A stretch of DNA of 28,737 nucleotides from a virus, in IMG/VR virus record IMGVR_UViG_3300009514_001427, one strand, 5' to 3'. Positions 156 through 27,506 of this stretch are shown piece after piece; the first letter of the stretch is position 1; every line of letters begins with the position of its first letter. A program made the position numbers and the translations under genes. The notes below the pieces were generated by a model, which saw only the letters and a program-made list of their open reading frames with translations, searched no databases and had not been told where the DNA came from.

Positions 156-183
156 TTGACATTTATTGTGTATGTGGTATACT
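156..183 (+). promoter_or_regulatory. sigma70 promoter P1 (TTGACA-16-TGgTATACT)
   Basis: TTGACA at 156-161 and TATACT at 178-183 with TGG immediately upstream. Member of a 33-copy family. Confidence 0.7.
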
Positions 184-217
184 TCAGGTGGAGTGTCTTT
201 CTGTAAGGAGAATTGAC

Positions 218-430
218 ATGAACCTGACTCACAATGATTTGTTGACGGCTCTTCAGCGGATGAGCGCTGAGGAGCTTGCTCAGAATGTGACGATTTATGT
301 TCCGTCCATGGATGAGTTTTTCCCAGTACGGATTATGCTTCGAGCAGGCGAGGTTCATGAGGCTGGAGATACTGATCCAGCACATGGCGTTTTGGACGAC
401 AATCACCCGTATTTGGAGATCAGGGAATGA
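218..430 (+). CDS. hypothetical protein, 70 aa
   Basis: ATG at 218 is preceded by AAGGAG at 205-210. It lies in frame inside track ORF 188..430, and the GTG at 188 falls before the likely TSS. Confidence 0.6.
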   Translation: MNLTHNDLLTALQRMSAEELAQNVTIYVPSMDEFFPVRIMLRAGEVHEAGDTDPAHGVLDDNHPYLEIRE

Positions 431-717
431 GGTATTACGTGAGGGCGGAGGACGGAGACATCTGGGGACCGATGTCTAAGGACGAAGCAGAGGGGATGCG
501 AGATCAACTGGATGATGCGCTGATCTTCCCTGAGACCATTTTTGAGCAGAGGGTGGTCACGGGTTCAGTCGAAGGCGGAGTGTTAGATTTCGACTCAGTT
601 CCTGCTGGAGTTGAGGTACAGATCAATGACTACGATACCGATGGAGTTGATGAGGACCGCCTCTCAGAAGATGAAGACGGTCGTCTCTGTGTTCAGAGCG
701 TTTACGGCAGGGAATAA
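427..717 (+). CDS. hypothetical acidic protein, 96 aa
   Basis: ATGA overlap with the upstream stop; GGAG at 414-417. Confidence 0.5.
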   Translation: MRYYVRAEDGDIWGPMSKDEAEGMRDQLDDALIFPETIFEQRVVTGSVEGGVLDFDSVPAGVEVQINDYDTDGVDEDRLSEDEDGRLCVQSVYGRE

Positions 718-1690
718 GAAGCTGAAACTTTCTTCGCTCATCGGATTAACCCGGGAGAAGAGGAAAGCTCGACTTCTGATTCGGGCTTGTCTTCACTCGG
801 GGGAGATGTTTCCACATACGCTGTTGTACGGTGTGGGTGGGACAGGTAAGACTGAGTTTGCTCGTCGCATTGGCAATGAACTCAGCTGTCATTTCGTGGA
901 GACACACGCGGCTGCCTTTAAGAAGCGGGAGGTCTTATTTTCCGCGCTGATTGATCATTCCAACGAAGCTCGTAGGCAGGGCAAGCCTCTGCTGCTCTTC
1001 ATTGATGAGATTCATCGTTTGAGTTTAGTCCTTCAGGAGGGCTTGTATCAGGCTATGAAGGAGTGGTGGATTCCGACTCCGGGTGGAAAGCTCCGCCTGG
1101 CTCCTTTCACTTTGATTGGTGCAACGACTCGGTTCGATATGTTGGACTCGAATTCTTTCGTCACGCGATTTGAGAATGTTTGGGAGATTCAGAGGTACAA
1201 GGTTGACGAGATCGCGATCATTGTTGCTGATGAACTCAGCAGACATAAGATGCGCTTCAGCGCTGAGGTGGCGACAGACATAGCCAAGCGGTGCCTGGGT
1301 ATTCCTCGTACTGCCATTAATCTGGCCAACAAAGTTCGGCGAGCGGCTCAAGCTGCTGGTCAATCTGAAATAACGTTACAGCATTGCTGTACGACATTTG
1401 CTTTGGAGCAGATCGATGCTCTTGGGCTTCAGCATGTCCATCACAGGTACTTGGAGATCCTCTACGCGACTCGTGTAGATGGGCATTTTAGTCCTTTGGG
1501 CGTAGGGGCTATAGCTGCTAAGATGCGTCAACCTGAAGATGTGATTAAGGGCAGCGTGGAACCGATCCTGCTGGAGCTTGATTTCGTAGCGCCTACACCC
1601 AGAGGTAGAATGATGACTCGCAAGGGTGCCGAATATTTTTCTTCCTTGGGGCTTGACATTTCGAACGGATGTGGTAGACTACGTGCATGA
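626..1690 (+). CDS. ruvB: RuvB-like AAA+ ATPase (Holliday-junction branch-migration ATPase family)
   Basis: Walker A GVGGTGKT, Walker B LLLFIDEIHRL, PFTLIGATTR and a C-terminal EPILLELDFVAPTPRGRMMT winged-helix region all match RuvB motifs recalled from memory. First ATG is at 626 (the track begins at TTG 611); the start is uncertain and 671 is also possible. It overlaps the preceding gene. Confidence 0.85.
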   Translation: MTTIPMELMRTASQKMKTVVSVFRAFTAGNKKLKLSSLIGLTREKRKARLLIRACLHSGEMFPHTLLYGVGGTGKTEFARRIGNELSCHFVETHAAAFKKREVLFSALIDHSNEARRQGKPLLLFIDEIHRLSLVLQEGLYQAMKEWWIPTPGGKLRLAPFTLIGATTRFDMLDSNSFVTRFENVWEIQRYKVDEIAIIVADELSRHKMRFSAEVATDIAKRCLGIPRTAINLANKVRRAAQAAGQSEITLQHCCTTFALEQIDALGLQHVHHRYLEILYATRVDGHFSPLGVGAIAAKMRQPEDVIKGSVEPILLELDFVAPTPRGRMMTRKGAEYFSSLGLDISNGCGRLRA

Positions 1691-1748
1691 TGAGCTTGGG
1701 TTTGGTCCTGAGCTAGATGAAACTCTCAGTTGGATGGAGATACGAGCA

Positions 1749-3185
1749 ATGGCAAAAGCGAAGTCAGCCAAGAAGGCGAAACGCAAGGCATCGGTCAAGA
1801 AGAACAAGACCCCTGCCTTGTCCTGTCCCAACATTGTCGATTTGCGGACCCCGCATTCGACGGAATCGAGTGGGCGTCTTGCCTCCGCATTCACCACGTT
1901 TGCCGAGAAGGTAGCGGCGTGGAAAGCGGAAGTCCGCAAGCATTTTGCGGGTGGGGGCAAGGCGTCTGATCTGCCTCAGTTTGAGGCGAAGCATTTCCTC
2001 GATGCCAACAAGGGCATCATGTCTCAGAAAGCATTTGACAAGCTGGTCGATGCTTGGAATGACAGTGACGGCGTTGTTTTCCCGCCTCGCTACAACCCTG
2101 TCCTTGTGGATTTGATCCACGAGATGAACGCGACCTCGATTCGTCGTGGTTTGCTCTCGAAGCATCCTCGCCAGCCGTCCAATTGGGACGAGAAGCAGTG
2201 GGGTCCGTGGAATCTGCTGGATGAGGACGGGGAGCATACCATCCCGTCTGGCTGGTTCTTTGACAAGGCGATGCCTCGTCGTTGTCACGCCGAGACTGCC
2301 GAGAAGCTGGTCGAGGATCACGCCAAGAACATTCTCACGTTTGGCAACAACCGTTACGTTGTGGGCGACGGTACGACCGTCCGTTGCTCCCCGATGCTTG
2401 TTTGGGCGACGGCTCGTGGCAACTACCGCGCGGGTGATTCGGCTCGCAAGCGTATGTCCATCGCTGGCAACAAGGATGTCACCGACGTTGTTTTCCGCGT
2501 CGAGGATCGTCCCAACAACGGTGGTGGCGTCACGGTCAAGGGCAATTGGGGTGACATTGCCGAGTTGGTATTCCTCCCCGGACAGGCGTTGACGGCAGGT
2601 TTCCTGTTTGACGCCAAGGGCAAGCGTCTGACTGCCAAGGCGATTCGGGCGTTGGATGGCGATACCAAGGGGTTGAAGTTCAAGACGGTACGTCAGGTCT
2701 TGGACGGTCCCATCGTCGGCAAGGCGATTACCCGCGACAAGTTGTGGGCAGAGATTCAGACCATCGAGGGCAACAAGGGCATCAAGCGTCTCCGCGAGCG
2801 TGAGGGGCGTAGCGAGTCTGAGGAAGTTGATTCGACGCCTCAGAACAAGACGATGACCAACCTCAAGGTCACGACGCGCGTCTCTCCGAATGAGGCTTTC
2901 CCGTTTGGTTTGCGGGCTGCCCAATGTGATATGGTCCCGTACATCATCAACGATGAAGAGGGCGATTTCTTGATGGGCATCGTGATTGGGGATCGCTCGA
3001 ATCTGGACCACAACGTCGGCGTGAACGAAGCCAAGGCGGAAGTCGAGGAAGTCGAGGAAGTCGAAGAGACTCCCGCTCCGAAGAAGTCCCGCAAGAAGAA
3101 GCCTTCGGATGCGGCTCCCCCTGTCGAGTCTGATACGTCGGACGACGAAGCGGAAGTCGAGGAAGAGGAAACGGTCGAGGCGTAA
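1749..3185 (+). CDS. hypothetical protein with a lysine/alanine-rich N-terminal tail (MAKAKSAKKAKRK…) and an acidic EVEE-repeat C-terminus
   Basis: The long ORF 1626..3185 starts at GTG. ATG 1749 has GGAG at 1735-1738. The 415-aa antisense ORF is judged spurious. Confidence 0.7.
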   Translation: MAKAKSAKKAKRKASVKKNKTPALSCPNIVDLRTPHSTESSGRLASAFTTFAEKVAAWKAEVRKHFAGGGKASDLPQFEAKHFLDANKGIMSQKAFDKLVDAWNDSDGVVFPPRYNPVLVDLIHEMNATSIRRGLLSKHPRQPSNWDEKQWGPWNLLDEDGEHTIPSGWFFDKAMPRRCHAETAEKLVEDHAKNILTFGNNRYVVGDGTTVRCSPMLVWATARGNYRAGDSARKRMSIAGNKDVTDVVFRVEDRPNNGGGVTVKGNWGDIAELVFLPGQALTAGFLFDAKGKRLTAKAIRALDGDTKGLKFKTVRQVLDGPIVGKAITRDKLWAEIQTIEGNKGIKRLREREGRSESEEVDSTPQNKTMTNLKVTTRVSPNEAFPFGLRAAQCDMVPYIINDEEGDFLMGIVIGDRSNLDHNVGVNEAKAEVEEVEEVEETPAPKKSRKKKPSDAAPPVESDTSDDEAEVEEEETVEA

Positions 3186-3274: not shown

Positions 3275-3302
3275 TTGACATTTATTGCTCATGTGGTATA
3301 CT
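3275..3302 (+). promoter_or_regulatory. sigma70 promoter P2
   Basis: TTGACA 3275-3280, TATACT 3297-3302, family consensus. Confidence 0.7.
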
Positions 3303-3344: not shown

Positions 3345-5210
3345 ATGTCCAAAACCACCTTGACTTTTGAGGCTCACGAAGCCCTCATTATCAGCAACAT
3401 CGAGCGTCAAGCTGGCTCGGTTGGCAAGGCAATTCTTGAAGGGACGATGAATGGCATCGAAGCCTGTAACAAGGCGGATGTCTCACCCCAAGTCTGGATT
3501 CACTTCGATTCCAATGGAGCGGCTGTAGGCGAATCTGGAGCGGTCCTGCGGATCAAAGACCTTGGCTGTGGAATTCAGACGAAGCAAGAGATTCTGGATT
3601 GGTGGAAAACCTTTGGTACGCCTCACGCCGAATCCGAGAAAAAGATTTGGGCTAACTTCCGTATGGGGCGTGGGCAGTTATTCACCTACGGTCGCAACAT
3701 CTGGCGTACGGGGACGTTCCGTTTGGAGTATGACCACAATACTCCGCCTGTCGAGAGAAACTACGAATCTGACCAGCGTATCCAATTCGGATTGGAAGAG
3801 AATCTCGATGCGTTTGAAGGTTGTGAAATCGAGATTCACTTTTACAAGAATCCTGTTGGGCCTGGTGGTTCTTATGCTTCCGTTGAGGCATTGAAAGCTG
3901 ACGTAAAGCAGCAGATCGAATTCATGGAGGGAGCGATCTACTTCAATGACGAGCAGATCAATACTCCTGCGAGTTGTTGTAAGTGGGATGACGAGACGGA
4001 CGATGCCTACTTCCTGTGGGGCATTGGTACGGAGCTAACGGTCTACAACATCGGGGCGTACGTTTGTGGTTACTCGATCAGCCGCATGGGCGTTAGTGGC
4101 ATCGTGGTATCGAAGAAACAGATGCGTTTGAATTACCCGCGCAATGCGGTCATGCAAGATGCCTGTCCGATTTGGCGAGACATTCGTGACATCGTGGATT
4201 CCAAAAAGGTCACGAAGATTCGAGCGACATCGCGTCGATTGGAGTATGACGAGAAGGTTGCGAATCTCATTGATTTGCGTGATGGGAAATGCACTCTTAA
4301 AGACATTAACGGCGTTGGTTTGTTGGAAACATCTAGTGGCAAGGCTATGTCACTTCCTGCCTGCAAGTCTATTCGTTCTCATTGGACGTTTGCTCCCAAG
4401 GGCGACATGGTTGCGGATCAGCTTATGCAAGCTGGCAATGCCGTTTGCTTGTCAGACAAAGTTTTGCGGGAAATGAATTATACTGGCGATCCTGCTGGAT
4501 TCTTCGAGTATCTATTGCAGGAGGAAATCCGCAAGGCTCAGCCACGTTGGAGCGATGATACTGATAAGAATCGGGTACTCAAGGCGTGGAAGCATCTACG
4601 CAAGCTGTATCGTCCGTTTGATTCTGGTTGTGACGATGACCTATGCAATCAGTACAACCGCCAGCATACGATCATTCCAACGGAGAAGCTGTCGAAGTTT
4701 GAGCGTCGAGTCATTCGGGTCTTGTCGGCTTATGATTGTTGGCAAGGTCGTACCATCGTGATTGGTCTTAGCGATTGCTACAACGGTTGGACCGATGGAG
4801 ATTCTTACATTGCGATCAACCGCAAATACTTGAAGCGTAACTCCCCGAATTACTATCATGGAGCGTCGGCTATCGTCACGCTAATGTTTCATGAGTTGGC
4901 TCACGACGAAGATAATACCGAGACAGACGTTCATGGTCTTGAGTTTTACAAGGCGTATCATGACCTTACTCGTCATGGGAATACATGGATGATCGCAGAC
5001 ATCTACGAGAAGTTGAAAGCTGCTAAGGTCGAAGATTACGATGAAGAGCAGAAGGCGAAAGCTGCCAAGGCGAAAGAGAAGCGTGACAAGAAACTGCGGG
5101 TAGCTGCTGCCTTGAAGCCGAAAAAGGTGGCGGCGTCGATCACTCACAAGCCGACGAAGAAAGCGGCTCCCAAGACGGCTAAGAAAAAGCGTCGAGTTCG
5201 CAGATTTTAG
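3345..5210 (+). CDS. GHKL-type ATPase domain protein with a C-terminal HExxH motif and a lysine-rich H1-like tail
   Basis: N-box EALIISNIE/EGTMNGIEA, G1 box IKDLGCGI and G2 FRMGRGQLFTYG are consistent with a Bergerat fold. FHELAHDE gives an HExxH motif. The C-terminus is KAKAAKAKEKRDKK…KPKKVAA…KKKRRVRRF. AAGGGAG at 3331-3337 precedes ATG 3345. Confidence 0.75.
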   Translation: MSKTTLTFEAHEALIISNIERQAGSVGKAILEGTMNGIEACNKADVSPQVWIHFDSNGAAVGESGAVLRIKDLGCGIQTKQEILDWWKTFGTPHAESEKKIWANFRMGRGQLFTYGRNIWRTGTFRLEYDHNTPPVERNYESDQRIQFGLEENLDAFEGCEIEIHFYKNPVGPGGSYASVEALKADVKQQIEFMEGAIYFNDEQINTPASCCKWDDETDDAYFLWGIGTELTVYNIGAYVCGYSISRMGVSGIVVSKKQMRLNYPRNAVMQDACPIWRDIRDIVDSKKVTKIRATSRRLEYDEKVANLIDLRDGKCTLKDINGVGLLETSSGKAMSLPACKSIRSHWTFAPKGDMVADQLMQAGNAVCLSDKVLREMNYTGDPAGFFEYLLQEEIRKAQPRWSDDTDKNRVLKAWKHLRKLYRPFDSGCDDDLCNQYNRQHTIIPTEKLSKFERRVIRVLSAYDCWQGRTIVIGLSDCYNGWTDGDSYIAINRKYLKRNSPNYYHGASAIVTLMFHELAHDEDNTETDVHGLEFYKAYHDLTRHGNTWMIADIYEKLKAAKVEDYDEEQKAKAAKAKEKRDKKLRVAAALKPKKVAASITHKPTKKAAPKTAKKKRRVRRF

Positions 5211-5247: not shown

Positions 5248-5793
5248 ATGACAGATAACACACCCAAACCGAGAGTCGTCATCATCAAGGCTCGCGTACC
5301 TGATTTTTACGAGGGCGCGGATGTCGCGGCAATCGAAGTCACCGAGGATTTGATCCTCATGCTGGACAAGCGTATTGCTCAGACGAAGCGGATGTTTGAG
5401 CAGGATTTCTACGGTACTCGTTGGTGGAGCTACGCCCCGTATTTCGTCCGCTCTGCTGGTCCTGAGACATTTGGCATTCAGATGAGCGAGGAGGACTTCG
5501 AGGCGGCTCTGGATGCAAATGGGTGGGTCGAGGTTCCGGAGGATAGTGATTACGACCCTGCGGAGGATGATTATGCTCCGATAGATACTCTGCTGTTGCA
5601 GATTGGGGCTGTCCTCACGGCGAATGATACCACGTTTGCTGGATGGCAGTGGACTGGTTATGACAAGTACATCGGGGATAGCGCTCGCGTCACGACCTAT
5701 GAGATGGCAGAAGCCACCGTTGACGAGTGGGCTGAGTTGATTGGCTGCACTGAGAAGCTGCGACAGGTACGCAGGCTAAGGGGAGTGAGATGA
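5248..5793 (+). CDS. hypothetical protein, 181 aa, leaderless start
   Basis: ATG 5248 sits 7 nt after the -10 with no SD. It is in frame within ORF 5230..5793. Confidence 0.6.
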   Translation: MTDNTPKPRVVIIKARVPDFYEGADVAAIEVTEDLILMLDKRIAQTKRMFEQDFYGTRWWSYAPYFVRSAGPETFGIQMSEEDFEAALDANGWVEVPEDSDYDPAEDDYAPIDTLLLQIGAVLTANDTTFAGWQWTGYDKYIGDSARVTTYEMAEATVDEWAELIGCTEKLRQVRRLRGVR

Positions 5794-5990
5794 AGGTCAC
5801 AGTAGAGATAGCCGAGATCCATAAATCTATCCGCGAAATTGAAGTTCCGGATGGAGCGACGGATGCAGAGATACGCGCCCTGGCTGAGAAGGACGCAGGT
5901 CAGGCGAATGAGCTTAACTTGGAGTACAGTGACACTCTGCCTGCCGAGCAATGGACGATCCGCAAAGAAAACGGGGATCATATCGCTTGA
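5790..5990 (+). CDS. hypothetical protein, 66 aa
   Basis: ATGA overlap; GGGGAGTGAG RBS. The stop TGA lies inside the next -35 (gcTTGAca). Confidence 0.55.
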   Translation: MKVTVEIAEIHKSIREIEVPDGATDAEIRALAEKDAGQANELNLEYSDTLPAEQWTIRKENGDHIA

Positions 5991-6014
5991 CATTTATTCG
6001 CCATGTGGTATACT
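5987..6014 (+). promoter_or_regulatory. sigma70 promoter P4
   Basis: TTGACA 5987-5992, TATACT 6009-6014. Confidence 0.7.
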
Positions 6015-6034: not shown

Positions 6035-6253
6035 ATGCCGGGACCAGAATTTCATCAAACAGGATACGGGCGAGCATTCTTTGAGGGGCAGTTGCCCGCA
6101 CTGATTAGGAATCTCGCACTGCTTACCAACAAGCAAACAGCATGTAACCTTCTTGCCGCAGGAGTTCTCGCGGGCAATGAAAACATGACGGCGGATGGGG
6201 CTGCTCGACGCGCCATCGAGACCTACGAGACCATCGAGAGGAAGTTGAGCTAA
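6035..6253 (+). CDS. hypothetical protein, 72 aa
   Basis: AAGGAGG at 6022-6028 with 6-nt spacing to ATG 6035. Confidence 0.6.
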   Translation: MPGPEFHQTGYGRAFFEGQLPALIRNLALLTNKQTACNLLAAGVLAGNENMTADGAARRAIETYETIERKLS

Positions 6254-7426: not shown

Positions 7427-7454
7427 TTGACATTTCGGTAGCATGTGGTATACT
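7427..7454 (+). promoter_or_regulatory. sigma70 promoter P5
   Basis: TTGACA 7427-7432, TATACT 7449-7454. Confidence 0.7.
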
Positions 7455-7498: not shown

Positions 7499-7831
7499 AT
7501 GAAAGTATTCCAGAACATCCAAACCAAACGCAAGGGTCTACGTTGTCCGATCCGAGTGATGAATCATTCGGGCGATGACATTCTCACCACCTACGATACG
7601 GCGGTCGAAGATTCGGTCGCTGTCGCCACGAAAGACCTACAGGACTTTTGGGGTCAATGCGTCGATGAGTTTGCGGGTCGTGGTACGTCGCTCAAACCGA
7701 CCGTCGCGGGCAAGCGTATCGGCTCGACCGATTTCGACCTACTCACAGGGTCCGAGATTGAGTCGCCCGAATTCGACGTGGGCTTGTTTGAGGAAATTCT
7801 GATTCAACCTGTCCCGCTCAGTGGCGGGTAA
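7499..7831 (+). CDS. hypothetical protein, 110 aa
   Basis: GGAG at 7488-7491 with 7-nt spacing to ATG 7499. The track ORF's earlier start lies before the TSS. Confidence 0.55.
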   Translation: MKVFQNIQTKRKGLRCPIRVMNHSGDDILTTYDTAVEDSVAVATKDLQDFWGQCVDEFAGRGTSLKPTVAGKRIGSTDFDLLTGSEIESPEFDVGLFEEILIQPVPLSGG

Positions 7832-8290: not shown

Positions 8291-8318
8291 TTGACATTTC
8301 CTGTGGCCATGGTATACT
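8291..8318 (+). promoter_or_regulatory. sigma70 promoter P6 (class II, TTGACATTTCCTGTGGCCATGGTATACT), leaderless
   Basis: TTGACA 8291-8296, TATACT 8313-8318; ATG at +7. Confidence 0.7.
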
Positions 8319-9338: not shown

Positions 9339-9362
9339 CATTTATTGTCGATGTGGTATACT
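9335..9362 (+). promoter_or_regulatory. sigma70 promoter P7
   Basis: TTGACA 9335-9340, TATACT 9357-9362. Confidence 0.7.
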
Positions 9363-10758: not shown

Positions 10759-10770
10759 TTGGCCTTTTAC

Positions 10771-17819: not shown

Positions 17820-17847
17820 TTGACAAACGCACCTCATGTGGTATACT
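17820..17847 (+). promoter_or_regulatory. sigma70 promoter P22
   Basis: TTGACA 17820-17825, TATACT 17842-17847. Leader is tagacggtagcgaacaaccttacgccaCAAGGAGCAAACAATG. Confidence 0.7.
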
Positions 17848-18302: not shown

Positions 18303-18330
18303 TTGACATTTGCTGGGAAAGAGGTATACT
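18303..18330 (+). promoter_or_regulatory. sigma70 promoter P23, leaderless
   Basis: TTGACA 18303-18308, TATACT 18325-18330, ATG 18338. Confidence 0.7.
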
Positions 18331-18337: not shown

Positions 18338-18769
18338 ATGAAACTGAATGACCGACAACAGGAAAAGGCAATCGGACTGCGCCAGCTTATCAAGTCACCA
18401 AGACCATGTGACGAAAAGGGCTGGTCCGCTCACATCGACTTCACCAGGGCTTTGGCGAAGATGCTCGATGGCATCGACGTAATACAAAGCCCCGTGGCGA
18501 TGAAAGAGACGTTCGACAGGGCTTGGAGAGCTTATGCCCATTACTGGGCAAACGAAAACGACAGGGTTCTGTTTGAAGCACTGGGCAGCGATGAGATACT
18601 GGTCGCAAAGGTCAAGGAGCATGAAAACGGACGGCGAATTGTCAACCGTATTCTTGCCCGAGTGAAAGAACAGTATGGGGGAATTAACCCCGAAGTAAAC
18701 GCCAGCTCCGTCGAAATCACAGACATTCTCACCGAAGAGATGGACGGCGAATGGTCCGAAGAGGTATAA
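18338..18769 (+). CDS. hypothetical protein, 143 aa
   Basis: Leaderless ATG. Confidence 0.65.
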   Translation: MKLNDRQQEKAIGLRQLIKSPRPCDEKGWSAHIDFTRALAKMLDGIDVIQSPVAMKETFDRAWRAYAHYWANENDRVLFEALGSDEILVAKVKEHENGRRIVNRILARVKEQYGGINPEVNASSVEITDILTEEMDGEWSEEV

Positions 18770-18877: not shown

Positions 18878-18906
18878 TTGACATTTATTGCTGGCCGTGG
18901 TATACT
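18878..18906 (+). promoter_or_regulatory. sigma70 promoter P24 (17-nt spacer)
   Basis: TTGACA 18878-18883, TATACT 18901-18906. Leader is tagaacaacggtaagttactctaagccaCAAAGGAGCAAACAATG. Confidence 0.7.
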
Positions 18907-18948: not shown

Positions 18949-19407
18949 ATGTCAAAGATCAGCTATGTTGGAACTCGCGTCACTCGTAACGCCAAATACA
19001 CTCCAGCCGCCAAGAATGGAATGCTCGACGCCGCTGAACGTGAATTGCGACGATTCACAAAGCCACAGCGTATCAATGAGAATTGGTGGAGCCGACAACT
19101 CGGGTTCCGTGAGGACTACGGGAAACTAACCAACGGGGAAACTCCGTGGGCAACGCTCCGAGTTATGATGACTCGCAACGCCGACGATGGACGCGGCAAA
19201 GGTACGAGATTCGTCCGATTCGAGGCGGGATTCGTCGCAAGATCGAAATTCGATCAAGACCCGGCATGGTATCGACGCGAATACGGCAAGCCCGTCACCA
19301 GCAAGAGAAAACCAGCGCTCAAGAAACAAGGCGTACTCACAGTCTGTACCACAACCTGTCAATGTTGCGGCAGAAAAAATGACCACGTTTGGTACGAAGC
19401 CGCTTGA
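18949..19407 (+). CDS. hypothetical protein, 152 aa (C-terminal CTTTCQCCGRKNDH)
   Basis: AAAGGAGC RBS. The stop TGA lies inside the next -35. Confidence 0.65.
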   Translation: MSKISYVGTRVTRNAKYTPAAKNGMLDAAERELRRFTKPQRINENWWSRQLGFREDYGKLTNGETPWATLRVMMTRNADDGRGKGTRFVRFEAGFVARSKFDQDPAWYRREYGKPVTSKRKPALKKQGVLTVCTTTCQCCGRKNDHVWYEAA

Positions 19408-19431
19408 CTTTTCTCGTGGCCGTGGTATACT
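19404..19431 (+). promoter_or_regulatory. sigma70 promoter P25 (TTGACT, class II)
   Basis: TTGACT 19404-19409, TATACT 19426-19431. Confidence 0.65.
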
Positions 19432-19472: not shown

Positions 19473-19661
19473 ATGGCAAAGATGACCAAAAAGAAAATCG
19501 ACGCGGCAGTGGAAGCAGCGTACCAACGCCACTTTGACCGCGTACCCGTCAATATGATGGACCTGCCCAAAATCATGAACATCGGCAGAAACGCCCTTGC
19601 CAACGGTGAGGACTTGGACGCTGCAATGGCAGCAGCAGTCCCCCAGTTTCGGAAGGACTAA
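19473..19661 (+). CDS. hypothetical protein, 62 aa
   Basis: GGAG at 19461-19464. Confidence 0.5.
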   Translation: MAKMTKKKIDAAVEAAYQRHFDRVPVNMMDLPKIMNIGRNALANGEDLDAAMAAAVPQFRKD

Positions 19662-19906: not shown

Positions 19907-19934
19907 TTGACAATTCTTGTGGCCGTGGTATACT
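19907..19934 (+). promoter_or_regulatory. sigma70 promoter P26 (class II, upstream AAAGAAAAGTTCATTTTCTAC)
   Basis: TTGACA 19907-19912, TATACT 19929-19934. Confidence 0.7.
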
Positions 19935-19976: not shown

Positions 19977-20258
19977 ATGAGGACTTACGATAACGGTAGC
20001 GGCTTTACGGTGTCATTCAGCGAGTCTGACGCTGACGAATTTAATGCGTCCTGGCCTTGCAGTACCGTAAACGGACCCGGTTGGTTTGCTTACGATAATA
20101 ACGGCGACCTGACCGATTGTGGAGGCGAAGCCGATCACGGTGACGGGGCGGACTGGCTTGCATTTTCGCAGGACTGCCAAAAGTACGGCGAGCAACGTAT
20201 CGGAGCGCTGAGAAAACGTCACGAGCGAGCCGAAAAGAAAAGTTCATTTTCTTCTTGA
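19977..20258 (+). CDS. hypothetical protein, 93 aa
   Basis: CAGGGAGA RBS. The C-terminus is translated from the promoter UP-region, and the stop TGA is the -35 (cTTGAca). Confidence 0.55.
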   Translation: MRTYDNGSGFTVSFSESDADEFNASWPCSTVNGPGWFAYDNNGDLTDCGGEADHGDGADWLAFSQDCQKYGEQRIGALRKRHERAEKKSSFSS

Positions 20259-20283
20259 CAACCTCTGGAGTATGGGGTATACT
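20255..20283 (+). promoter_or_regulatory. sigma70 promoter P27 (class II)
   Basis: TTGACA 20255-20260, TATACT 20278-20283. Confidence 0.65.
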
Positions 20284-20326: not shown

Positions 20327-20551
20327 ATGCCATGTGAAGATGCCCCTTGCTGCGGTTGCTGCACCGTCCCGACCATGCAGGACCAGTACGACGCCGAGGA
20401 AGCCTATTGGGAAGCCGAGGAAGCGGGATTGCTCCCCGGCGAGGATATGGACGGAGACTTTGACTCCGCTATGGCGTCAGCCGGTCACGGCATGGACGAG
20501 GACTACGGCTTTGCAGAGGATATGCACTGCGAAGGATACGACGAATACTAA
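20327..20551 (+). CDS. small acidic Cys-rich protein, 74 aa (CEDAPCCGCC)
   Basis: AGGAG at 20313-20317. Confidence 0.55.
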   Translation: MPCEDAPCCGCCTVPTMQDQYDAEEAYWEAEEAGLLPGEDMDGDFDSAMASAGHGMDEDYGFAEDMHCEGYDEY

Positions 20552-20628: not shown

Positions 20629-20657
20629 TTGACAACTCCCGTGGCATGTGGTATACT
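20629..20657 (+). promoter_or_regulatory. sigma70 promoter P28 (class II), leaderless
   Basis: TTGACA 20629-20634, TATACT 20652-20657, ATG 20664. Confidence 0.7.
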
Positions 20658-20663: not shown

Positions 20664-20909
20664 ATGTTTGAATGGCTCAACAATCTAAAGCCCGGCGATC
20701 AAGTGACTGTCCGTGACCGAGACCACAACAGGCTCGGACAATTCCCAGAAAGACAATGGGCAGAAGTGGTCAGCGAAATCACAGCAGACCATATCAAAAC
20801 TCTGCCCGTTGGATATGTACCGGGATCGAAAACTATCGAGCCATTCAGACTGTTTGACCGACGATTCGGCAGCAGCAATACAGAGGAGCTAAGACCATGT
20901 TCGCAATAG
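20664..20909 (+). CDS. hypothetical protein, 81 aa
   Basis: Leaderless ATG in frame in ORF 20646..20909. Confidence 0.55.
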   Translation: MFEWLNNLKPGDQVTVRDRDHNRLGQFPERQWAEVVSEITADHIKTLPVGYVPGSKTIEPFRLFDRRFGSSNTEELRPCSQ

Positions 20910-21184
20910 TCCTATCAGATGTCAGAGCCAACAGAAACGAACTCGTAGGCTGGAAAGCTACAGTCTATCCCGTCGATGGTTACGACCGTTGCGACGGATG
21001 CCAAGACCACAGCAAGCCCGCTCTAGGCTGTCAATACGTCGAGTCACAAATCCACAAAGACCCCAAAGACGCAATCGACGAAGTTGCAAGGATTGCCGCG
21101 CGACGAGCAGAAAGACGCGAAGGCTCCGAAGTATTCCACGTCCCCCATGAAGAAGTTCAGAAATTTGCTGAACAAATCGCTTGA
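20897..21184 (+). CDS. hypothetical protein, 95 aa
   Basis: GAGGAG RBS. The stop lies inside the next -35. Confidence 0.55.
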   Translation: MFAIVLSDVRANRNELVGWKATVYPVDGYDRCDGCQDHSKPALGCQYVESQIHKDPKDAIDEVARIAARRAERREGSEVFHVPHEEVQKFAEQIA

Positions 21185-21208
21185 CATTTATTCCCCATGT
21201 GGTATACT
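21181..21208 (+). promoter_or_regulatory. sigma70 promoter P29
   Basis: TTGACA 21181-21186, TATACT 21203-21208. Leader is gtaagtgacggcaagagaaaaccaCAAAGGAGCTAAGCCGATG. Confidence 0.7.
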
Positions 21209-21248: not shown

Positions 21249-21686
21249 ATGGCAAAATGTAACAAACTCTGGACCAAAACCGCGTTTGCAAAAGTCCCTC
21301 CAATCGGAGCGACCGAGAAAATCGCGGCAGAAAATAAGGTCGCACTAGTCAAAATCTTCTGCGCCCTGTCCGATCATCGTCACTATGTACTAGAGTACGA
21401 CCCAGAAACAACCGAAGCGTTCGTCTTGACCACAAACGGCGACGTCTGCGAGCTTGGATATATCCTACTGTCCGAGCTTCAAGAGATGAACGACAACTGG
21501 AATCAACGAAACCCAGAAACAGGACGCCGACGCTTCCTATTCCCACCGTGGGAACGAGAGCTTCACGGTACGCCCTCAGCAGGCTACAACATCGGCAAGG
21601 TACAAGAAGCCCACGCGCGACAATGGAATCAACCCGTATGGAACGCCGCAATCGCAGACGGCAGAGCGGAGGTTATCCCAACATGA
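21249..21686 (+). CDS. hypothetical protein, 145 aa
   Basis: GGAG at 21237-21240, in frame in ORF 21213..21686. Confidence 0.65.
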   Translation: MAKCNKLWTKTAFAKVPPIGATEKIAAENKVALVKIFCALSDHRHYVLEYDPETTEAFVLTTNGDVCELGYILLSELQEMNDNWNQRNPETGRRRFLFPPWERELHGTPSAGYNIGKVQEAHARQWNQPVWNAAIADGRAEVIPT

Positions 21687-21937: not shown

Positions 21938-21965
21938 TTGACTATTCCGTCTCATGTAGTATACT
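21938..21965 (+). promoter_or_regulatory. sigma70 promoter P30 (TTGACT-16-TATACT)
   Basis: TTGACT 21938-21943, TATACT 21960-21965. Leader is ctatgtagacgacggttactcaaacAAAGGGAGCTAGACAATG. Confidence 0.6.
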
Positions 21966-22005: not shown

Positions 22006-22506
22006 ATGCCAAACATCAGCCGACAAGACTTTATCGCAGGGACACAAGCGGTTAGGACGATTCAGTCGATAACGTGGCGTAGACGATCCGACAAGATTGT
22101 CAAGCGTTGCGTACAATGCGAAGCCGAAACCGCTACGCATCGGGGACAACGATTCTGCAACGCTTGTGACGAATTCGTCGCAACGTATGACGCCAAAGAA
22201 GCCGAAGCGGGCGACGTAGTACGGATGCAATTCATCCCGAAAATCAACCCCGAAGGCACGAAAAATTGGACGCCCGCAGGTGGCTTTATTTTCAACGCTC
22301 CGACCCGCGAAGCCGCCGAAGCTATCAAACGTCGCAAGGGCTTGATTCAATGCCTGAAAATGGGCGAGCAAATGCCCACAAACGACGCGGACGAGATTAG
22401 GGCAATGATCGACGCTGGCGACCTGAAAGCCTTACCGCGTTGTTTCGGAGCGTATGACGTAGAAACATGGACCGCCGAAGGCGAAACGTATACCGTCGTG
22501 GATTAG
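22006..22506 (+). CDS. zinc-ribbon protein, 166 aa; paralog of the gene at 13164..13625
   Basis: AAAGGGAGC RBS. CVQCEAETATHRGQRFCNACDEF. Confidence 0.7.
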   Translation: MPNISRQDFIAGTQAVRTIQSITWRRRSDKIVKRCVQCEAETATHRGQRFCNACDEFVATYDAKEAEAGDVVRMQFIPKINPEGTKNWTPAGGFIFNAPTREAAEAIKRRKGLIQCLKMGEQMPTNDADEIRAMIDAGDLKALPRCFGAYDVETWTAEGETYTVVD

Positions 22507-22661: not shown

Positions 22662-22689
22662 TTGACATTCGCTCCCTATGTAGTATACT
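22662..22689 (+). promoter_or_regulatory. sigma70 promoter P31
   Basis: TTGACA 22662-22667, TATACT 22684-22689. Leader is tatattgacgacggtaggaaactcgaaccAAAAGGGAGCTAACAATG. Confidence 0.7.
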
Positions 22690-22733: not shown

Positions 22734-23672
22734 ATGACAAAGCAACGCAAAACAAAAGGCGACGTTTACCAGTGGATCACCGAACGAATGATCGCGGCAT
22801 TGGAAGCGGGAACGGTCCCGTGGCGGCGTCCGTGGTTGCTGATGAACGCCCCGGCGAATCTCATATCGGGCAAAACGTATCGCGGCGTCAATCTGTTTTC
22901 GCTCGCTATCGCTGGCGAAAAATACACTAGCCGATGGTGGCTGACTGCCAAGCAAGCCCGCGACCGTGGCGGTCACGTCCGCAAGGGCGAACGGTCGTCG
23001 ATGGTGGTTCGTCCGCTAGTCGGTGAGAAAACGAAAAACGGTCAGCCCGTACTCGACGCCAACGGCAAGCCACAAAAATACTTCGGTATGCGATACTCGA
23101 ATGTTTTCAACGTCGAGCAATGCGAGGGAATCGAGTATCCCAAGCCCGAAACCGGCAAGCCCGTCGATACGCTGGAAGTCTGCGAAAACATCATCGGCAA
23201 TTGGACCGATTGCCCGCCAATTGGTTACGGTGGCGACCGGGCGTATTATTCGCAAAGCGACGACCGTATCCAAATGCCAATGCGTGACACTTTCGAGGGA
23301 TCGGAACGATTCTACTCGGTCCTATTCCACGAATGTATTCACGCGACCGGACATAAGTCTCGGCTCAATCGTGACCTAACTGGACACTTCGGAACGTCGG
23401 ACTATGCCCGCGAGGAACTCGTTGCCGAAATGGGCGCAGCTTTCCTATGCGGCGTGGCGGGAATCGAATGCAAGACGGTCGATAACTCGGCAGCGTATAT
23501 CGCTAACTGGTTGCAGCGATTAAAAAACGATCATAAGCTAGTCGTCACTGCCGCCAAGCAAGCGCAAGCGGCGGCGGAGAGTATCCAAGGCATCGAAGCT
23601 CCGAAGTATGACAGCGAACCGCAAGATGGAAACGAGAGTGCCAACGCGATGGCACAAACCGTAGCGGCGTAA
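22734..23672 (+). CDS. ardC: ArdC-like antirestriction protein (N-terminal ssDNA-binding DUF1738-like domain plus C-terminal zincin metalloprotease, HExxH = FHECIHATGH)
   Basis: N-terminal …VPWRRPW…GKTYRGVNLFSL… and C-terminal HECIHATGH…ELVAEMGAAFLC are typical of ArdC/TraC1-N proteins as recalled from memory. Confidence 0.8.
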   Translation: MTKQRKTKGDVYQWITERMIAALEAGTVPWRRPWLLMNAPANLISGKTYRGVNLFSLAIAGEKYTSRWWLTAKQARDRGGHVRKGERSSMVVRPLVGEKTKNGQPVLDANGKPQKYFGMRYSNVFNVEQCEGIEYPKPETGKPVDTLEVCENIIGNWTDCPPIGYGGDRAYYSQSDDRIQMPMRDTFEGSERFYSVLFHECIHATGHKSRLNRDLTGHFGTSDYAREELVAEMGAAFLCGVAGIECKTVDNSAAYIANWLQRLKNDHKLVVTAAKQAQAAAESIQGIEAPKYDSEPQDGNESANAMAQTVAA

Positions 23673-23982
23673 GACTCACCACCGAGGCGGGCGGGTGCCA
23701 GACCAGTGGCACCCCGCTCGCCGCATACCTTAGACAGTGCCACGAGCATGGCACGCAAAGCGCGGAATTGAATAAGAACAAAAACCAAACAAAAAGTGTT
23801 CAAAATTTTTTGCAAATGACATACATTCTCCCACCCCTTTTGAACTTTCGGTTCCATATTTGCTCGCCGGGGGGTGTCCCCATCTGAAGCAAGCTAGCTG
23901 TGTGCATAAGGGGTATGGGTATGTCCTCCGGTGCAAACGCGGGTCCCTTTTTGCGTAGCCGAGGGTGCCCTGGCTGATGGTA

Positions 23983-24023
23983 CCAAAAAATAGGAGCCGC
24001 TCCATTGGTCAGAGACGGCTCCT
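23983..24023 (-). terminator. rho-independent terminator on the minus strand
   Basis: On the + strand the sequence reads ccAAAAAAT-aggagccg-N16-cggctcct. On the - strand the 8-bp stem is followed by ATTTTTTGG. Confidence 0.5.
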
Positions 24024-24156
24024 GGTGATGCTGCCACTCGGGCAGATGGGCTAGTGGTGTAGTAGGCAGTATGACTGGGGCTGGTGGTGATGTCAATAAA
24101 AAAGCGCGGATAAAATATGGCTGTTTTTGTGAAGTTTTCGCGGAAAATTGGCGTCC

Positions 24157-24184
24157 TTGACATTTCTGTGAGATGTGGTAGAAT
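24157..24184 (+). promoter_or_regulatory. sigma70 promoter P32 (TTGACATTTCTGTGAGATGTGGTAGAAT), leaderless
   Basis: TTGACA 24157-24162, TAGAAT 24179-24184, ATG 24191 (+7). Confidence 0.55.
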
Positions 24185-24190: not shown

Positions 24191-24814
24191 ATGATAGATC
24201 ACTCGATAGATGAATTGCGTGGCCACGCGGATTATCATGGCGTGAGGAAAATTGCCGATCTGATGTTGGATGATCCTCGCTTTATCGTATGGAGTGGTTC
24301 ATCTCATGAGGGTCAGCATCATCACGGTACTGGGGGATTGGTCACTCATGTCTCTGAAGTTGTACATATGTGCATGCTCTTGAAAAACGAATGCTATCCA
24401 GATCTGGATGAGAAGGTATTGTTCTTATCAGCTCTGTTGCATGACTGGGGCAAGCTTTGGGATTACGAGCCTTGGGATTACGGTTCCACAGCAAAACCAT
24501 TGAAGGCATGCGTGATAACTGACCCGAAACTAATCGATCAGCATACCAAATGGCGCGGGGCTCCTCACAAGCGGAACATTCATCATATCAGTCGATCTGC
24601 CATTGAGTGGAGCAAGGCGGTTGCTCTCACTGGGGAATGCAAAGACATTGAGGAGCAGGTCACTCATGCGATTCTGGCTCATCATGGTCAGAGGGCATGG
24701 GGATCACCAGTGGCTCCCAACAGTCGTATTGCATGGCTCTTGCATTGTTGCGACATTATAAGTGCTCGCATGGCAGATTGTGAAACGCTGGATTATCTCA
24801 AGTTCCGGAAGTAG
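24191..24814 (+). CDS. HD-domain metal-dependent phosphohydrolase, 207 aa
   Basis: The H…HHHG…H / LLHDWGK / ILAHHGQ motifs are consistent with the HD superfamily. Confidence 0.75.
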   Translation: MIDHSIDELRGHADYHGVRKIADLMLDDPRFIVWSGSSHEGQHHHGTGGLVTHVSEVVHMCMLLKNECYPDLDEKVLFLSALLHDWGKLWDYEPWDYGSTAKPLKACVITDPKLIDQHTKWRGAPHKRNIHHISRSAIEWSKAVALTGECKDIEEQVTHAILAHHGQRAWGSPVAPNSRIAWLLHCCDIISARMADCETLDYLKFRK

Positions 24815-25007: not shown

Positions 25008-25099
25008 ATCTGGGTCTCCTTTGAGGGGAAGTATACGACATGAGAGAGAAATGTCAAAAGGGGTGTTCTAAAAAATTTCGCGGGTAATAGAGGGCTGTT

Positions 25100-25771
25100 T
25101 TAAGCGTTTGAGGGGTGGTTTTGTCCTGTGTCAAAACGCTTTTGGGTGTGGCCGAGGATTCCTTCACGGGCATGGCAGAGGAATGAGAGTTTCTTACCAT
25201 TTTGGAGTCTTTGGATGATATTGAGTTTTTCTCGTTGGAAGTTCTTTTCCCACCAGTGGACGGATCGTCTTGTGGTGAGTAGGGAGAAGTCTTTGTAGGG
25301 GGTATTCTTGAGATACTTATCTTCTTCGGTTCCATCGCAATCGCTGACCAGAATCCAGACATAGCCTACCCCGACTCGCTTCAGTTCAGCGATTGCTTTT
25401 TGGGTATCTGGTTCTGGTATACGATCTAGCAGATGGGTACAGATCACGAGATCGAATTGGTCATCGGGGTATGGTAGTTCTTGAGCATTGGCTAGTTTGA
25501 GATCTACGTCTTTGATATCGACTTTGTTCAGGGCTTCTTGTGAGAAGTCTACGCCATGGCATTGGACTTGTGGTCTTGTATGTTTGACCCATTTGATAAG
25601 TTGTCCTGAGCCGCAACCGACATCGATCATGGAGTTAAAGGCGAGTGGTTGAATGACTTGTACGTACTCGAATGCTCTGAGTGGGCTATTGCCATAACTG
25701 GGGCATTGTGCATGTACATGGTCATAGAGTTGTTTCAGATCTGGTGGTGGTTGGTTTCTTTTGGTTCTCAT
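25100..25771 (-). CDS. class I SAM-dependent methyltransferase, 223 aa
   Basis: Motif I IDVGCGSGQL, HGVDFS and FDLVICTHLL. A TATAAT lies immediately upstream of its ATG on the minus strand. Confidence 0.8.
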   Translation of the reverse strand: MRTKRNQPPPDLKQLYDHVHAQCPSYGNSPLRAFEYVQVIQPLAFNSMIDVGCGSGQLIKWVKHTRPQVQCHGVDFSQEALNKVDIKDVDLKLANAQELPYPDDQFDLVICTHLLDRIPEPDTQKAIAELKRVGVGYVWILVSDCDGTEEDKYLKNTPYKDFSLLTTRRSVHWWEKNFQREKLNIIQRLQNGKKLSFLCHAREGILGHTQKRFDTGQNHPSNA

Positions 25772-25799: not shown

Positions 25800-25818
25800 G
25801 ATGGGAAGGAGATTTGAG

Positions 25819-26508
25819 ATGCCACAAATACTTGAAAAGCAGCTTCATGCGGATGGTACTGAGGTTGAGGATATAGAGACGTTGAATCCAGCGGTGGAAT
25901 CGATGGAGGATTTCATTCGTGACAGTGGGTTGCGCATGGAGGTATTGCCAGTTCACGAGAATCCGTATCGTCATCCAGCGGATCAGGCTACGGCGTATCA
26001 TTATTCATGCAAGCTAATAAACGCGGAAAATAGATGGTTTGTTGTTTATTTTTCCAAGGGTCCTGGGTTGCGTTTGTGGCAGTCTCCTCCGGACGAGTTT
26101 GAGGCATCGGGTAAGCCGTTGCATGTTCCGTTGGTGAATGTTGGGACTCAGTACGATGGTCCGTTGCCTCCATTTGAGGGGGAGAATGCGGAATATGATG
26201 AGAACATTTACACTAAGTGTTCTGTACCTGCTCCACCGAATATTTTTGAGGTTTTGGATTGTGTAGCGAATGATTGTTATACGGTGGAGATCACTGGGGT
26301 ATTTGAGGGTTGGTGCAATTTGATGCGGGCTCACATTGACAGTATTCATGCCAAGAAGACTTTTGAGACATGTTCACAGCATCGTTTGAAGTTGTTGGCG
26401 TTGTTGGGTGAGGAGTTGTATCACCGTTTGATTCATGAGATGGACCGCAAAGTAGTTGTTCCTGAGACTGAAGAAGAAGAAGAAGAGGGGTCTGATGAAG
26501 ATAATTGA
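25819..26508 (+). CDS. hypothetical protein, 229 aa (C-terminal acidic EEEEEEGSDEDN)
   Basis: AGGAG at 25806-25810 precedes ATG 25819, in frame in ORF 25681..26508. Confidence 0.6.
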   Translation: MPQILEKQLHADGTEVEDIETLNPAVESMEDFIRDSGLRMEVLPVHENPYRHPADQATAYHYSCKLINAENRWFVVYFSKGPGLRLWQSPPDEFEASGKPLHVPLVNVGTQYDGPLPPFEGENAEYDENIYTKCSVPAPPNIFEVLDCVANDCYTVEITGVFEGWCNLMRAHIDSIHAKKTFETCSQHRLKLLALLGEELYHRLIHEMDRKVVVPETEEEEEEGSDEDN

Positions 26509-27034
26509 GTATACTCAAGCGGATCTGGATTACATTTGGGATTTAGCGGAGAAGCGCAACAATCCTAAAGAGGCGAACAATGTCAAGAGCAAGAAGCATG
26601 ATGACAAGAAGAGTGAGATTCAGGTCAATTATGACGGTTTGCACGGGGAGTTAGGTTTCAGCAAGCTCTCAGGAATTCCTATTAGAACAGATACAAGTTT
26701 GAGTGGAGAGGCTCCATTGGGCAGATGGGATTTCAAGCTTGTTAATGGGAAGACGGTGGAAGTACGTTATCGATGCAAGCGGTATTACGAGTTTGCATTA
26801 AACAGTGACAAGATTGAGGATTTCGTAACGGATTACGGGGTTTTAGTTCATCCTGGGGTTAAGCCTTGGACATTTCAGATAACGGGGTGGTGTACGCGCG
26901 AACAATTCGTGAAGGATCATCACGTTGACAACTTTGGATTTGGTGATCGTCTGGTTATTGCGAACATCAAGTTGAATAAGACTGGTTGGGAGATTTTTCA
27001 GAACCAGGACATGTTTGCTGGTATTGGCGTTTAG
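26495..27034 (+). CDS. hypothetical protein, 179 aa
   Basis: ATG 26495 overlaps the end of the upstream gene; AGAGGGG upstream. In frame in ORF 26456..27034. Confidence 0.55.
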   Translation: MKIIEYTQADLDYIWDLAEKRNNPKEANNVKSKKHDDKKSEIQVNYDGLHGELGFSKLSGIPIRTDTSLSGEAPLGRWDFKLVNGKTVEVRYRCKRYYEFALNSDKIEDFVTDYGVLVHPGVKPWTFQITGWCTREQFVKDHHVDNFGFGDRLVIANIKLNKTGWEIFQNQDMFAGIGV

Positions 27035-27321
27035 TCTTCTGGCAGATCAAGATCTCCATAGACGTCTTCCATTTCGTCTTTTGGGGTCCACTTCATAGCG
27101 AATTCGGTTTGACCGATTTTGCCATATCCAGCTTGTTCGGTCATGATGAGTGCTTGTTCTAAGCCATGACGATCACGCAAGACTTGCATAAACGTAGCAA
27201 TGATGAACAGGATGATATAGTCATCGAGTGCGCTGGGGTTTGGGAGTATACCTATTCCTGTAGGGAGTGTATGACTAGGATCATCATAGTGAAATGAAAA
27301 CGTCAGTTGTTTTTCCTGCAT
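27031..27321 (-). CDS. hypothetical protein, 96 aa
   Basis: Protein-like ORF convergent with the upstream + gene. Weak RBS. Confidence 0.4.
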   Translation of the reverse strand: MQEKQLTFSFHYDDPSHTLPTGIGILPNPSALDDYIILFIIATFMQVLRDRHGLEQALIMTEQAGYGKIGQTEFAMKWTPKDEMEDVYGDLDLPED

Positions 27322-27478
27322 TAGAGGGGAACCCTTCTCGCATGCCGCAAGAAAAGCAGTCGGCTCTCCATCTTGGAGATCTTCCCTGTGACCGACTGCC
27401 TCTCGTTGTGATCGCCTTACTGATAAGGATGGGCCAGAATTGAAGTTACGTCAAGGACAAATTGGGAAAAATTACATC

Positions 27479-27506
27479 TTGACATTTCTATCAAATGTGA
27501 TAGGGT
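27479..27506 (+). promoter_or_regulatory. degenerate member of the promoter family (TTGACATTTCTATCAAATGTGATAGGGT)
   Basis: Perfect -35 TTGACA 27479-27484 but a degraded -10 (TAGGGT). ATG 27513 lies 7 nt downstream. Confidence 0.35.

Follow-up and report, generated by a model that had tools for sequence, protein, structure and literature searches.

Several phages place many strong sigma-70 or sigma-A promoters in front of their early genes, as seen for the early promoters of T4 and the host-takeover module of SPO1, where conservation extends beyond the hexamers. These promoters cluster before small non-essential early genes that face one way. They have been mapped experimentally in A+T-rich genomes, and few genes in the modules are leaderless. 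For the Kayvirus (Twort-like) Staphylococcus phage vB_SauM-515A1, 58 early promoters of the form TTGACW-17 bp-TRTGN-TATANT have been mapped (PMC7698491). Here we describe an array of this kind in the IMG/VR virus record IMGVR_UViG_3300009514_001427, a stretch of 28,737 nucleotides (referred to as the window), where an element of the form cTTGACAttt-N7-(A/C)(T/C)GTGG-TATACT recurs before small genes. We read the copies as near-consensus promoters for the housekeeping sigma factor of the host (sigma-70/sigma-A type), which would drive strong expression of entry or anti-defence genes in a giant, uncultivated mobile element from sediment, and we put the probability of this reading at about 80%. 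Recognition by the host polymerase, the start site, the early timing and the promoter strength are what we infer in it.

The promoter element

A relaxed scan of the window (TTGACA with at most one mismatch, a gap of 15–19 nt, TATACT with at most one mismatch) gave 34 matches on the + strand and 5 on the − strand. Of the former, 31 are copies of the one element given above, with hexamers 16 nt (27 copies) or 17 nt (four copies) apart that match the sigma-70/sigma-A consensus at 10–12 of 12 positions. A scan with the sigma-70 consensus returned 30 + strand sites with 11–12 matches and three more with 10 (1653, 19404, and 21938; copies are named by their first position). Between positions 1 and 20000 the same scan found 49 sites, as opposed to 16.0 ± 4.1 in shuffled sequences, and the element itself occurs less than once in shuffled sequence. 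A repeat finder reported one family of 29 copies of 31 nt. Copies 3275, 11966, and 16990 are identical over 28 nt, and so, separately, are 13932 and 14667.

The first-pass annotation of this DNA counted 33 copies between 156 and 27506. This total and its end coordinate can be accounted for by the 31 strong copies together with two degenerate ones, 24157 (−10 TAGAAT) and 27479 (−10 TAGGGT), and correspond to one copy per 0.83 kb. There is also a weak copy at 10494. The accompanying statement that all copies point rightward is contradicted by a full copy on the − strand at 25057–25030 (TTGACATTTCTCTCTCATGTCGTATACT); almost all copies lie on one strand.

The information content of the 31 strong copies is concentrated around the hexamers. 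A C precedes the −35 hexamer in 29 of 31 copies, the TTT directly after it is kept in 25–28, and the A-T-G-T-G-G before the −10 is kept in 22–31, with TTGACA and TATACT also being of high information. Counted from the start of the −10, T is found at −3 in 27, G at −2 in 28, and G at −4 in 29 of the 31 copies. The TG of an extended −10, which takes the form TRTG in Gram-positive bacteria, is accordingly present one base upstream of the −10 hexamer, the TG being flagged in most copies, and TGTGG-TATACT matches the form TRTGN-TATANT given for the mapped Kayvirus early promoters (PMC7698491). After the −10, the sixth base is C in 19 and the seventh base A in 23 of the 31 copies. The middle of the spacer holds only 0.2–0.7 bit per position, and its central 8-nt core is 38% identical between copies. 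The spacer as a whole can therefore not be called conserved, as was claimed earlier; this applies to the TTT and the extended −10 alone.

The 21 nt upstream of the −35 have an A+T content of 64%, compared to 49% for the window, and a tract of at least four A or T is found there in 23 of 33 copies, compared to 11% of random windows. The proposed UP element is thus supported as regards an A/T-rich composition, and the likeness is one of composition only. An upstream element said to be shared by the class-II copies does exist: GTTCATTTTCT(T/A)C precedes copies 13932, 18878, 19907, 20255, and 20629. Two of these, however, lack the class-II spacer.

Conservation in related contigs

Relatives were identified by motif scans of metagenomes, as contigs with clustered and co-oriented copies. 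Several belong to SDBT01, the Loki's Castle deep-sea sediment metagenome. The contigs compared were SDBT01004098.1 (L241 and L171), SDBT01000003.1 (L252, 389 kb), SDBT01000399.1 (L169/L279), L280, L281, L282, and L283. They have a common gene order of a RuvB-like ATPase, a ∼500-aa protein, a GHKL ATPase, small genes, a 337-aa protein, DUF932, small genes, and ArdC, and their proteins share 40–85% sequence identity with the syntenic proteins of the window.

The motif is found at orthologous positions in L171 and L241, L252, L169/L279, L280, and L283, the copy within the RuvB-like gene, at its 3′ end, being one of those kept. Block-wise identity was measured on 11 orthologous promoter pairs. The −35 block is 93–98% identical and the extended −10/−10 block 91%, while the spacer core (38–55%), the upstream flank (37–49%), and the first 7 nt downstream (50–60%) are much less so. 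Judged from the sequences, this is what purifying selection on the polymerase-contacting positions of promoters should produce. As expected for a phage-type array, many co-oriented copies stand before small genes and are kept in the relatives. In L279 and L280 the array ends approximately at the ArdC position, and the genes beyond are close-packed and without the motif.

No near-identical DNA was found among GenBank phages or PLSDB plasmids, and a search of species-representative genomes with ArdC confirmed no relative. Motif scans of genomes and viral contigs gave mostly single generic matches spread over many phyla (Oscillospiraceae, Omnitrophota, Planctomycetota, and Anaerolineae) and no host assignment, and an outward walk along the contig of a relative via a PcfJ fragment returned only an unrelated short contig.

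Position relative to genes

The 33 copies serve about 50 + strand genes, with one to a few genes each, which agrees with the earlier observation that almost every gene or gene pair has its own promoter. In 11 copies of the window (5214, 8291, 10163, 11966, 12472, 12830, 15157, 16465, 18303, 20629, and 24157) an ATG lies 6 nt, once 7 nt, past the −10, where about 0.5 such cases would be expected by chance. The ATG opens a long open reading frame (ORF) and orthologue alignments start at residue 1–3. The same geometry is retained in the orthologues of the genes 8325–9338, 12506–12823, and 18338–18769. A transcription start is expected 6–8 nt past the −10, usually at a purine, and the A that is most often found at the seventh base is in 11 units the A of the ATG; leaderless mRNAs are therefore predicted for these units. 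The first-pass annotation took the repeats to be promoters rather than another kind of repeat, and this is supported by the fixed ATG distance and by conserved blocks that coincide with the promoter parts touched by RNA polymerase, kept at 91–98% identity in orthologues while core and flanks drift. A twelfth candidate, copy 27479, is doubtful as a leaderless unit, since homologues cover only the C-terminal 80% of its ORF.

When the copies of the window are pooled with those of its relatives, three modes appear in the distance that separates the −10 from the ATG: 6 nt (19 of 77 copies), ∼21 nt, and ∼41 nt. The two longer classes carry ribosome-binding sites of the AAGGAG type with strong Shine-Dalgarno character. 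No shared structure could be detected in the long leaders, as RNAalifold predicts 0 pairs on 22 leaders.

Seven copies hold the TGA stop of the upstream gene inside the −35 hexamer, showing that the elements are packed into the minimum intergenic space, and another twelve begin at most 20 nt from the upstream stop. Convincing terminators are found at only about four places (3221, ∼10721, 16412, and 18231), so that transcripts probably overlap and run into downstream genes. Compared with moron-type units, nearly all units thus have the promoter and few have the terminator.

On this basis, the following course of events may be proposed. Upon entry, the primary-sigma holoenzyme of the host would bind the promoters of the array without any need for an element-encoded factor. 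Transcription would start at the A that is the seventh nucleotide after the −10, giving mRNAs that either have no leader or have a short, unstructured one with a strong ribosome-binding site. Genes farther downstream would receive additional expression by read-through. With one promoter per gene each unit would be independent of its neighbors, which fits the gene turnover observed among the relatives.

The copies and the genes that they precede are as follows; distances are from the −10 to the ATG.

156–183 (+): promoter copy, 16-nt spacer; 34 nt, gene 218–430
1653–1680 (+): promoter copy, −10 TAGACT, within the 3′ end of the RuvB-like gene 626–1690; serves a ∼480-aa gene, 1749–3185; orthologues in L171, L165, and L283
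3221–3258 (+): intrinsic-terminator-like hairpin and T run just upstream of copy 3275
3275–3302 (+): promoter copy; 42 nt, GHKL ATPase gene 3345–5210; orthologous copies in L171 and L283
5214–5241 (+): promoter copy, leaderless; ATG at 5248, 6 nt, gene 5248–5793
5987–6014 (+): promoter copy, upstream TGA stop inside the −35; 20 nt, gene 6035–6253
7427–7454 (+): promoter copy; 44 nt, gene 7499–7831
8291–8318 (+): promoter copy, spacer end GGCCATGG, leaderless; gene 8325–9338, leaderless also in the L241, L252, and L283 orthologues
9335–9362 (+): promoter copy, upstream stop inside the −35; gene 9398–9601
10163–10190 (+): promoter copy, upstream stop inside the −35, leaderless; gene 10197–10478
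10494–10522 (+): weak copy, TTGACT-17 nt-TATATT; no ORF before a hairpin and T run at ∼10721–10764
10771–10798 (+): promoter copy, class II (GGGCCGTGG); DUF932 gene 10837–11853
11966–11993 (+): promoter copy, leaderless; gene 12000–12155
12472–12499 (+): promoter copy, class II, leaderless; gene 12506–12823, leaderless also in the L227 orthologue
12830–12857 (+): promoter copy, leaderless; gene 12864–13088
13098–13125 (+): promoter copy; 38 nt, gene 13164–13625 (paralogue of 22006–22506)
13932–13959 (+): promoter copy, class II; 18 nt, gene 13978–14280
14667–14694 (+): promoter copy, class II, upstream stop inside the −35; 21 nt, gene 14716–14880
15157–15185 (+): promoter copy, 17-nt spacer, TATAAT, 12/12 matches, leaderless; gene 15192–15347
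15516–15543 (+): promoter copy; 39 nt, gene 15583–16194
16198–16225 (+): promoter copy without a downstream ORF of at least 35 aa; predicted ∼215-nt transcript to the terminator 16412–16446
16465–16492 (+): promoter copy, leaderless; gene 16499–16975
16990–17017 (+): promoter copy; 21 nt, gene 17039–17296
17820–17847 (+): promoter copy, atypical AAC after the −35, seen also in orthologous copies; gene 17895–18182
18303–18330 (+): promoter copy, leaderless (7 nt); gene 18338–18769, leaderless also in the L178 and L169 orthologues
18878–18906 (+): promoter copy, class II, 17-nt spacer; gene 18949–19407
19404–19431 (+): promoter copy, class II, −35 TTGACT, upstream stop inside the −35; gene 19473–19661
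19907–19934 (+): promoter copy, class II; gene 19977–20258
20255–20283 (+): promoter copy, 17-nt spacer, upstream stop inside the −35; gene 20327–20551
20629–20657 (+): promoter copy, 17-nt spacer, leaderless; gene 20664–20909; the L169/L279 orthologue has a 20-nt leader and another map position
21181–21208 (+): promoter copy, upstream stop inside the −35; gene 21249–21686
21938–21965 (+): promoter copy, −35 TTGACT; gene 22006–22506
22662–22689 (+): promoter copy; ArdC gene 22734–23672
24157–24184 (+): degenerate copy, −10 TAGAAT, TG present, leaderless; HD-domain gene 24191–24814
25030–25057 (−): full copy, ∼22 nt upstream of the − strand ORF 25007–24798
27479–27506 (+): degenerate copy, −10 TAGGGT; homologues suggest a gene start at 27606 and not the leaderless ATG 27513

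Comparison with known promoter arrays

By analogy, the array comes nearest to the early-promoter arrays of Kayvirus, T4, and SPO1, and the strategy of fast entry-gene expression would in this sense already be known. T4 ADP-ribosylates the polymerase to favor its early promoters, whereas no such polymerase-modifying factor is known for the element described here. The Thermus phages phiYS40 and P23-45 also have many genes with TG-extended −10 promoters where the transcript starts at the start codon, but this leaderless class is middle or late and has no −35 element. In contrast, the −35 is perfect in all copies of the window, and a single type of promoter serves units with and without a leader.

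The array resembles that of Kayvirus in having dozens of near-consensus host promoters, with TATACT among the −10 variants and a start ∼6 nt past the −10; in Kayvirus these promoters stand before early genes, those for host takeover included, and the host polymerase reads them in unmodified form (PMC7698491). There are also clear differences. The Kayvirus spacer is 17 bp and that of the array mostly 16, and the 58 Kayvirus promoters are spread over 31 transcription units and ∼140 kb, while the copies here form a single dense block. No report of leaderless units was seen for Kayvirus (PMC7698491), whereas a third of the units in the array are predicted to be leaderless. Finally, the host of Kayvirus is a Firmicute, while the element has no host assignment. 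The array is unusual in being dense and very tightly packed, and in having a leaderless third that is conserved.

Two unrelated phage-like contigs, L129 (IMGVR_UViG_3300021387_000299, 178 kb) and L204 (Ga0164313_10002936), have dense co-oriented arrays of consensus promoters of their own, with more than 20 promoters in 10 kb for L129. Each array has a genome-specific conserved leader, such as TATAAT-aataatgtaaagagagg. From these arrays, the arrangement of one promoter per small gene appears to be widespread.

The array leaves the understanding of early expression in phages and plasmids unchanged. What it does provide is a promoter of an uncultivated lineage that is cleanly defined by comparison, with two conserved blocks and a fixed predicted start site. 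Such a definition helps to find the transcription units of related giant elements and their true start codons, those of leaderless genes among them, and to delimit entry modules rich in unknown candidate anti-defence genes. The 28–31 nt units with three standard 5′ ends might also serve as compact, possibly broad-host expression parts.

Gene content

PHROG and Pfam scans identified a RuvB-like AAA+ ATPase (626–1690), a GHKL ATPase (3345–5210), DUF932 (10837–11853), ArdC (22734–23672), and an HD protein (24191–24814), as well as a methyltransferase on the − strand (25100–25771). The remaining genes (about 40) are orphans, a few of which match PHROG families of unknown function, and the array region spans at least 24 kb, with genes that are small and for the most part unknown. 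These scans, which covered about 50 proteins of the window and 10 flanking proteins from the relatives, found no gene for a capsid, terminase, relaxase, or type IV secretion system (T4SS). Likewise, no virion hallmark gene was seen in the window or in ∼100 kb of sequence from the relatives. ArdC, DUF932, and the GHKL ATPase suit an entry or anti-defence module, whether of a giant phage or of a megaplasmid, and when the HD protein and the many orphans are included the gene content fits an early or entry regulon, which is plausible.

The genes between 626 and 5210 form a trio that is kept in all relatives (L252, L281, L282, and L283 among them) and consists of the RuvB-like AAA+ ATPase, a ∼500-aa unannotated protein, and the GHKL ATPase. 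The latter is ∼620 aa long, belongs to HATPase_c_3, and has invariant HExxH-like and other motifs. Homologs with 25–28% identity are found in many Pseudomonas, Acinetobacter, and Xanthomonas megaplasmids. In the IMG/VR contigs L253, L254, and L261 (298–461 kb), 17–27 tRNA genes lie in the 10 kb directly upstream of the GHKL homolog. One relative encodes a protein of the Phenol_MetA_deg family, which we take to be an outer-membrane channel and thus a hint of a two-membrane host.

Alternative explanations

Certain features weigh against a plain reading of the copies as host promoters. The dominant 16-nt spacer is one short of the Escherichia coli optimum, and in Kayvirus a 16-bp spacer was held responsible for one weak promoter (PMC7698491). 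Ordinary sigma-70 preferences do not extend to a near-invariant G before the −10 or a near-invariant C as its fifth base; a factor specific to the host or encoded by the element, or a second protein binding GTATAC, could lie behind this. Early timing, moreover, is inferred from gene content only. The copies could also, or mainly, be operators for one element-encoded repressor or activator, comparable to the stoperators of L5-like mycobacteriophages or the KorB sites of IncP plasmids. This would explain the conservation beyond the hexamers, where the TTT after the −35, the G at −13, and the C at the fifth −10 position are near-invariant. Furthermore, GTATAC is palindromic, with 30 of its 35 occurrences in the window lying within copies, and several relatives have, in copies that are not orthologous, a distinct class of spacers that end in GGCCGTGG. 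The five GTATAC sites outside promoters, compared to ∼7 expected, indicate neither avoidance nor excess. Yet every conserved block is a known contact region of the polymerase, no further conserved block or dyad spans the spacer in the copies of the window or the orthologous pairs, and no repressor or other regulator gene could be identified. The stoperators of cluster A mycobacteriophages (L5) are ∼20–30 short asymmetric sites with a TTGACA-like core, placed in one orientation in short intergenic gaps. They are 13-bp repressor sites and mostly not promoters, whereas each copy here is a complete promoter with both hexamers at promoter spacing and at a fixed distance to the start codon, so we regard the operator explanation as unlikely. 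Recognition by a sigma factor or RNA polymerase encoded by the element would fit the 16-nt spacer and the invariant C of TATACT, both slightly off the canonical consensus, and huge phages often encode their own transcription factors. But the copies match 11–12 of 12 positions of the housekeeping consensus and add the TG extension, single occurrences of the 19-base pattern are found in many bacterial genomes unrelated to one another, and no sigma factor or RNA polymerase gene is present in the window, making this very improbable. The copies might instead be alike by common descent, as a recently amplified moron-like or repeat-mediated mobile cassette, and spread by recombination was indeed deduced earlier from the supposed spacer conservation. 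The copies with identical 28-nt sequences and the quantized leader lengths would agree with this, and so would the single paralogous pair among the 53 proteins (13164–13625 and 22006–22506, 56% identical), which has kept similar promoters, both of the long-leader type, and similar leaders. The MFEWLNNL gene, which has no leader here, has also moved together with its unusual TTGACAAC promoter: in SDBT01000399.1 it lies elsewhere on the map and has a leader of 20 nt. However, the promoters occupy orthologous positions in genomes whose proteins are only 40–60% identical, and the spacer cores share 38% identity both within the window and between the window and SDBT01004098.1, so that no within-genome homogenization is seen. 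Similarity stops at the edges of the 28–31 nt core even for copies that are identical over 28 nt, the repeat finder detected no repeat beyond ∼50–80 nt in the window, and a second paralogous pair is lacking. In a relative with 76–83% identity, the spacer cores have diverged more than the neighboring coding DNA. A recent amplification is accordingly improbable, and the similarity of the promoters is, on the sequence comparisons, explained by selection. Modular turnover appears to be real all the same: gene content between the conserved anchor genes differs among relatives, and units seem to move as promoter plus gene over long times.

Preferring host promoters kept by selection leaves the nature of the element to be considered. 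The block could be the leading (establishment) region of a conjugative megaplasmid or integrative and conjugative element, with promoters that fire once the incoming strand has become double-stranded. ArdC and DUF932 are typical plasmid establishment genes, and full-length homologs of the GHKL ATPase are found in 190 plasmid records (91 typed as conjugative) and only 2 phage records. The relatives encode PcfJ, a Lar-like protein, and a ProQ-like protein, and the family was absent from the motif scan of IMG/VR. As in known leading regions, where anti-defence-type (ArdC-like) genes form a block, the genes have a single orientation (PMC11541004). The single-stranded promoter Frpo of such regions is a folded hairpin of a few hundred nt, present in one or few copies per plasmid leading region (PMC11541004), unlike the plain 28-nt duplex promoters repeated more than 30 times here. 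None of the copies has an inverted-repeat partner nearby, the only pairs being those of + copies with the single − copy, 0.8–11 kb apart; since there is no complementary arm, and thus no hairpin of this type, promoters of the Frpo kind can be excluded, as can an ssi-type equivalent. A leading region also accords poorly with the lack of any relaxase, oriT, T4SS, or SSB/PsiB gene in ∼100 kb of the relatives, with a small-gene block that spans more than 40 kb, and with the tRNA gene inside the array of L241. The plasmid homologs of the GHKL ATPase are only 25–28% identical, while relatives with 37–40% identity lie on the 298–461 kb IMG/VR contigs beside the 17–27 tRNA genes, as in huge phages. 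We therefore lean towards a giant phage rather than a megaplasmid and consider the leading region possible but less probable. More speculatively, and in our view doubtful as a whole, the window may represent an undescribed family of giant sediment mobile elements. Its entry module would consist of standard, host-independent units (a consensus promoter plus a leaderless start or one of two fixed leaders) that are expressed in very different bacteria and, being many and strong, draw host RNA polymerase from host genes, with non-coding parts, such as a copy of the 23S rRNA L1-stalk and the promoter-to-terminator units without an ORF, acting on host translation.

Non-coding units and recurrent motifs

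An isolated 91-nt copy of the bacterial 23S rRNA L1-stalk is found at 13816–13906 (+) between a gene and copy 13932 (Rfam LSU 2125–2216; 51.4 bits, E 1e-12). Its loops are near-consensus and its stems have compensating changes. A similar isolated fragment (58 bits, 2129–2212) lies 5.4 kb upstream of the GHKL homolog in the IMG/VR contigs L275 and L276. From its sequence, the copy could be a decoy or binding site for the ribosomal protein uL1.

The region 16198–16446 (+) has a full promoter, no ORF of more than 15 codons, and then a strong terminator at 16412–16446. The predicted 215-nt transcript folds better than 200 of 200 shuffled sequences (z = −3.56), making it a candidate small RNA. A second candidate non-coding unit, 10494–10764 (+), has a weak promoter followed by an ORF-free stretch of ∼240 nt, which includes a perfectly paired hairpin of 10 bp (CTGTGACATG...CATGTCACAG) and has a hairpin with a T run at its end.

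The 485-nt gap after ArdC (23673–24156) contains no + strand ORF of at least 40 codons and has several GC-rich hairpins; all Rfam matches in the gap were below threshold. Gene orientation is mixed downstream of this gap, which might represent a non-coding RNA, an origin, or a module boundary.

Finally, the motif (A/T)CTGAAATAAGCC occurs at or just past the 3′ ends of genes at 10639, 15367, 16418, 20593, and 21903 (+). At 16412–16437 it makes up the loop and 3′ arm of the terminator hairpin.

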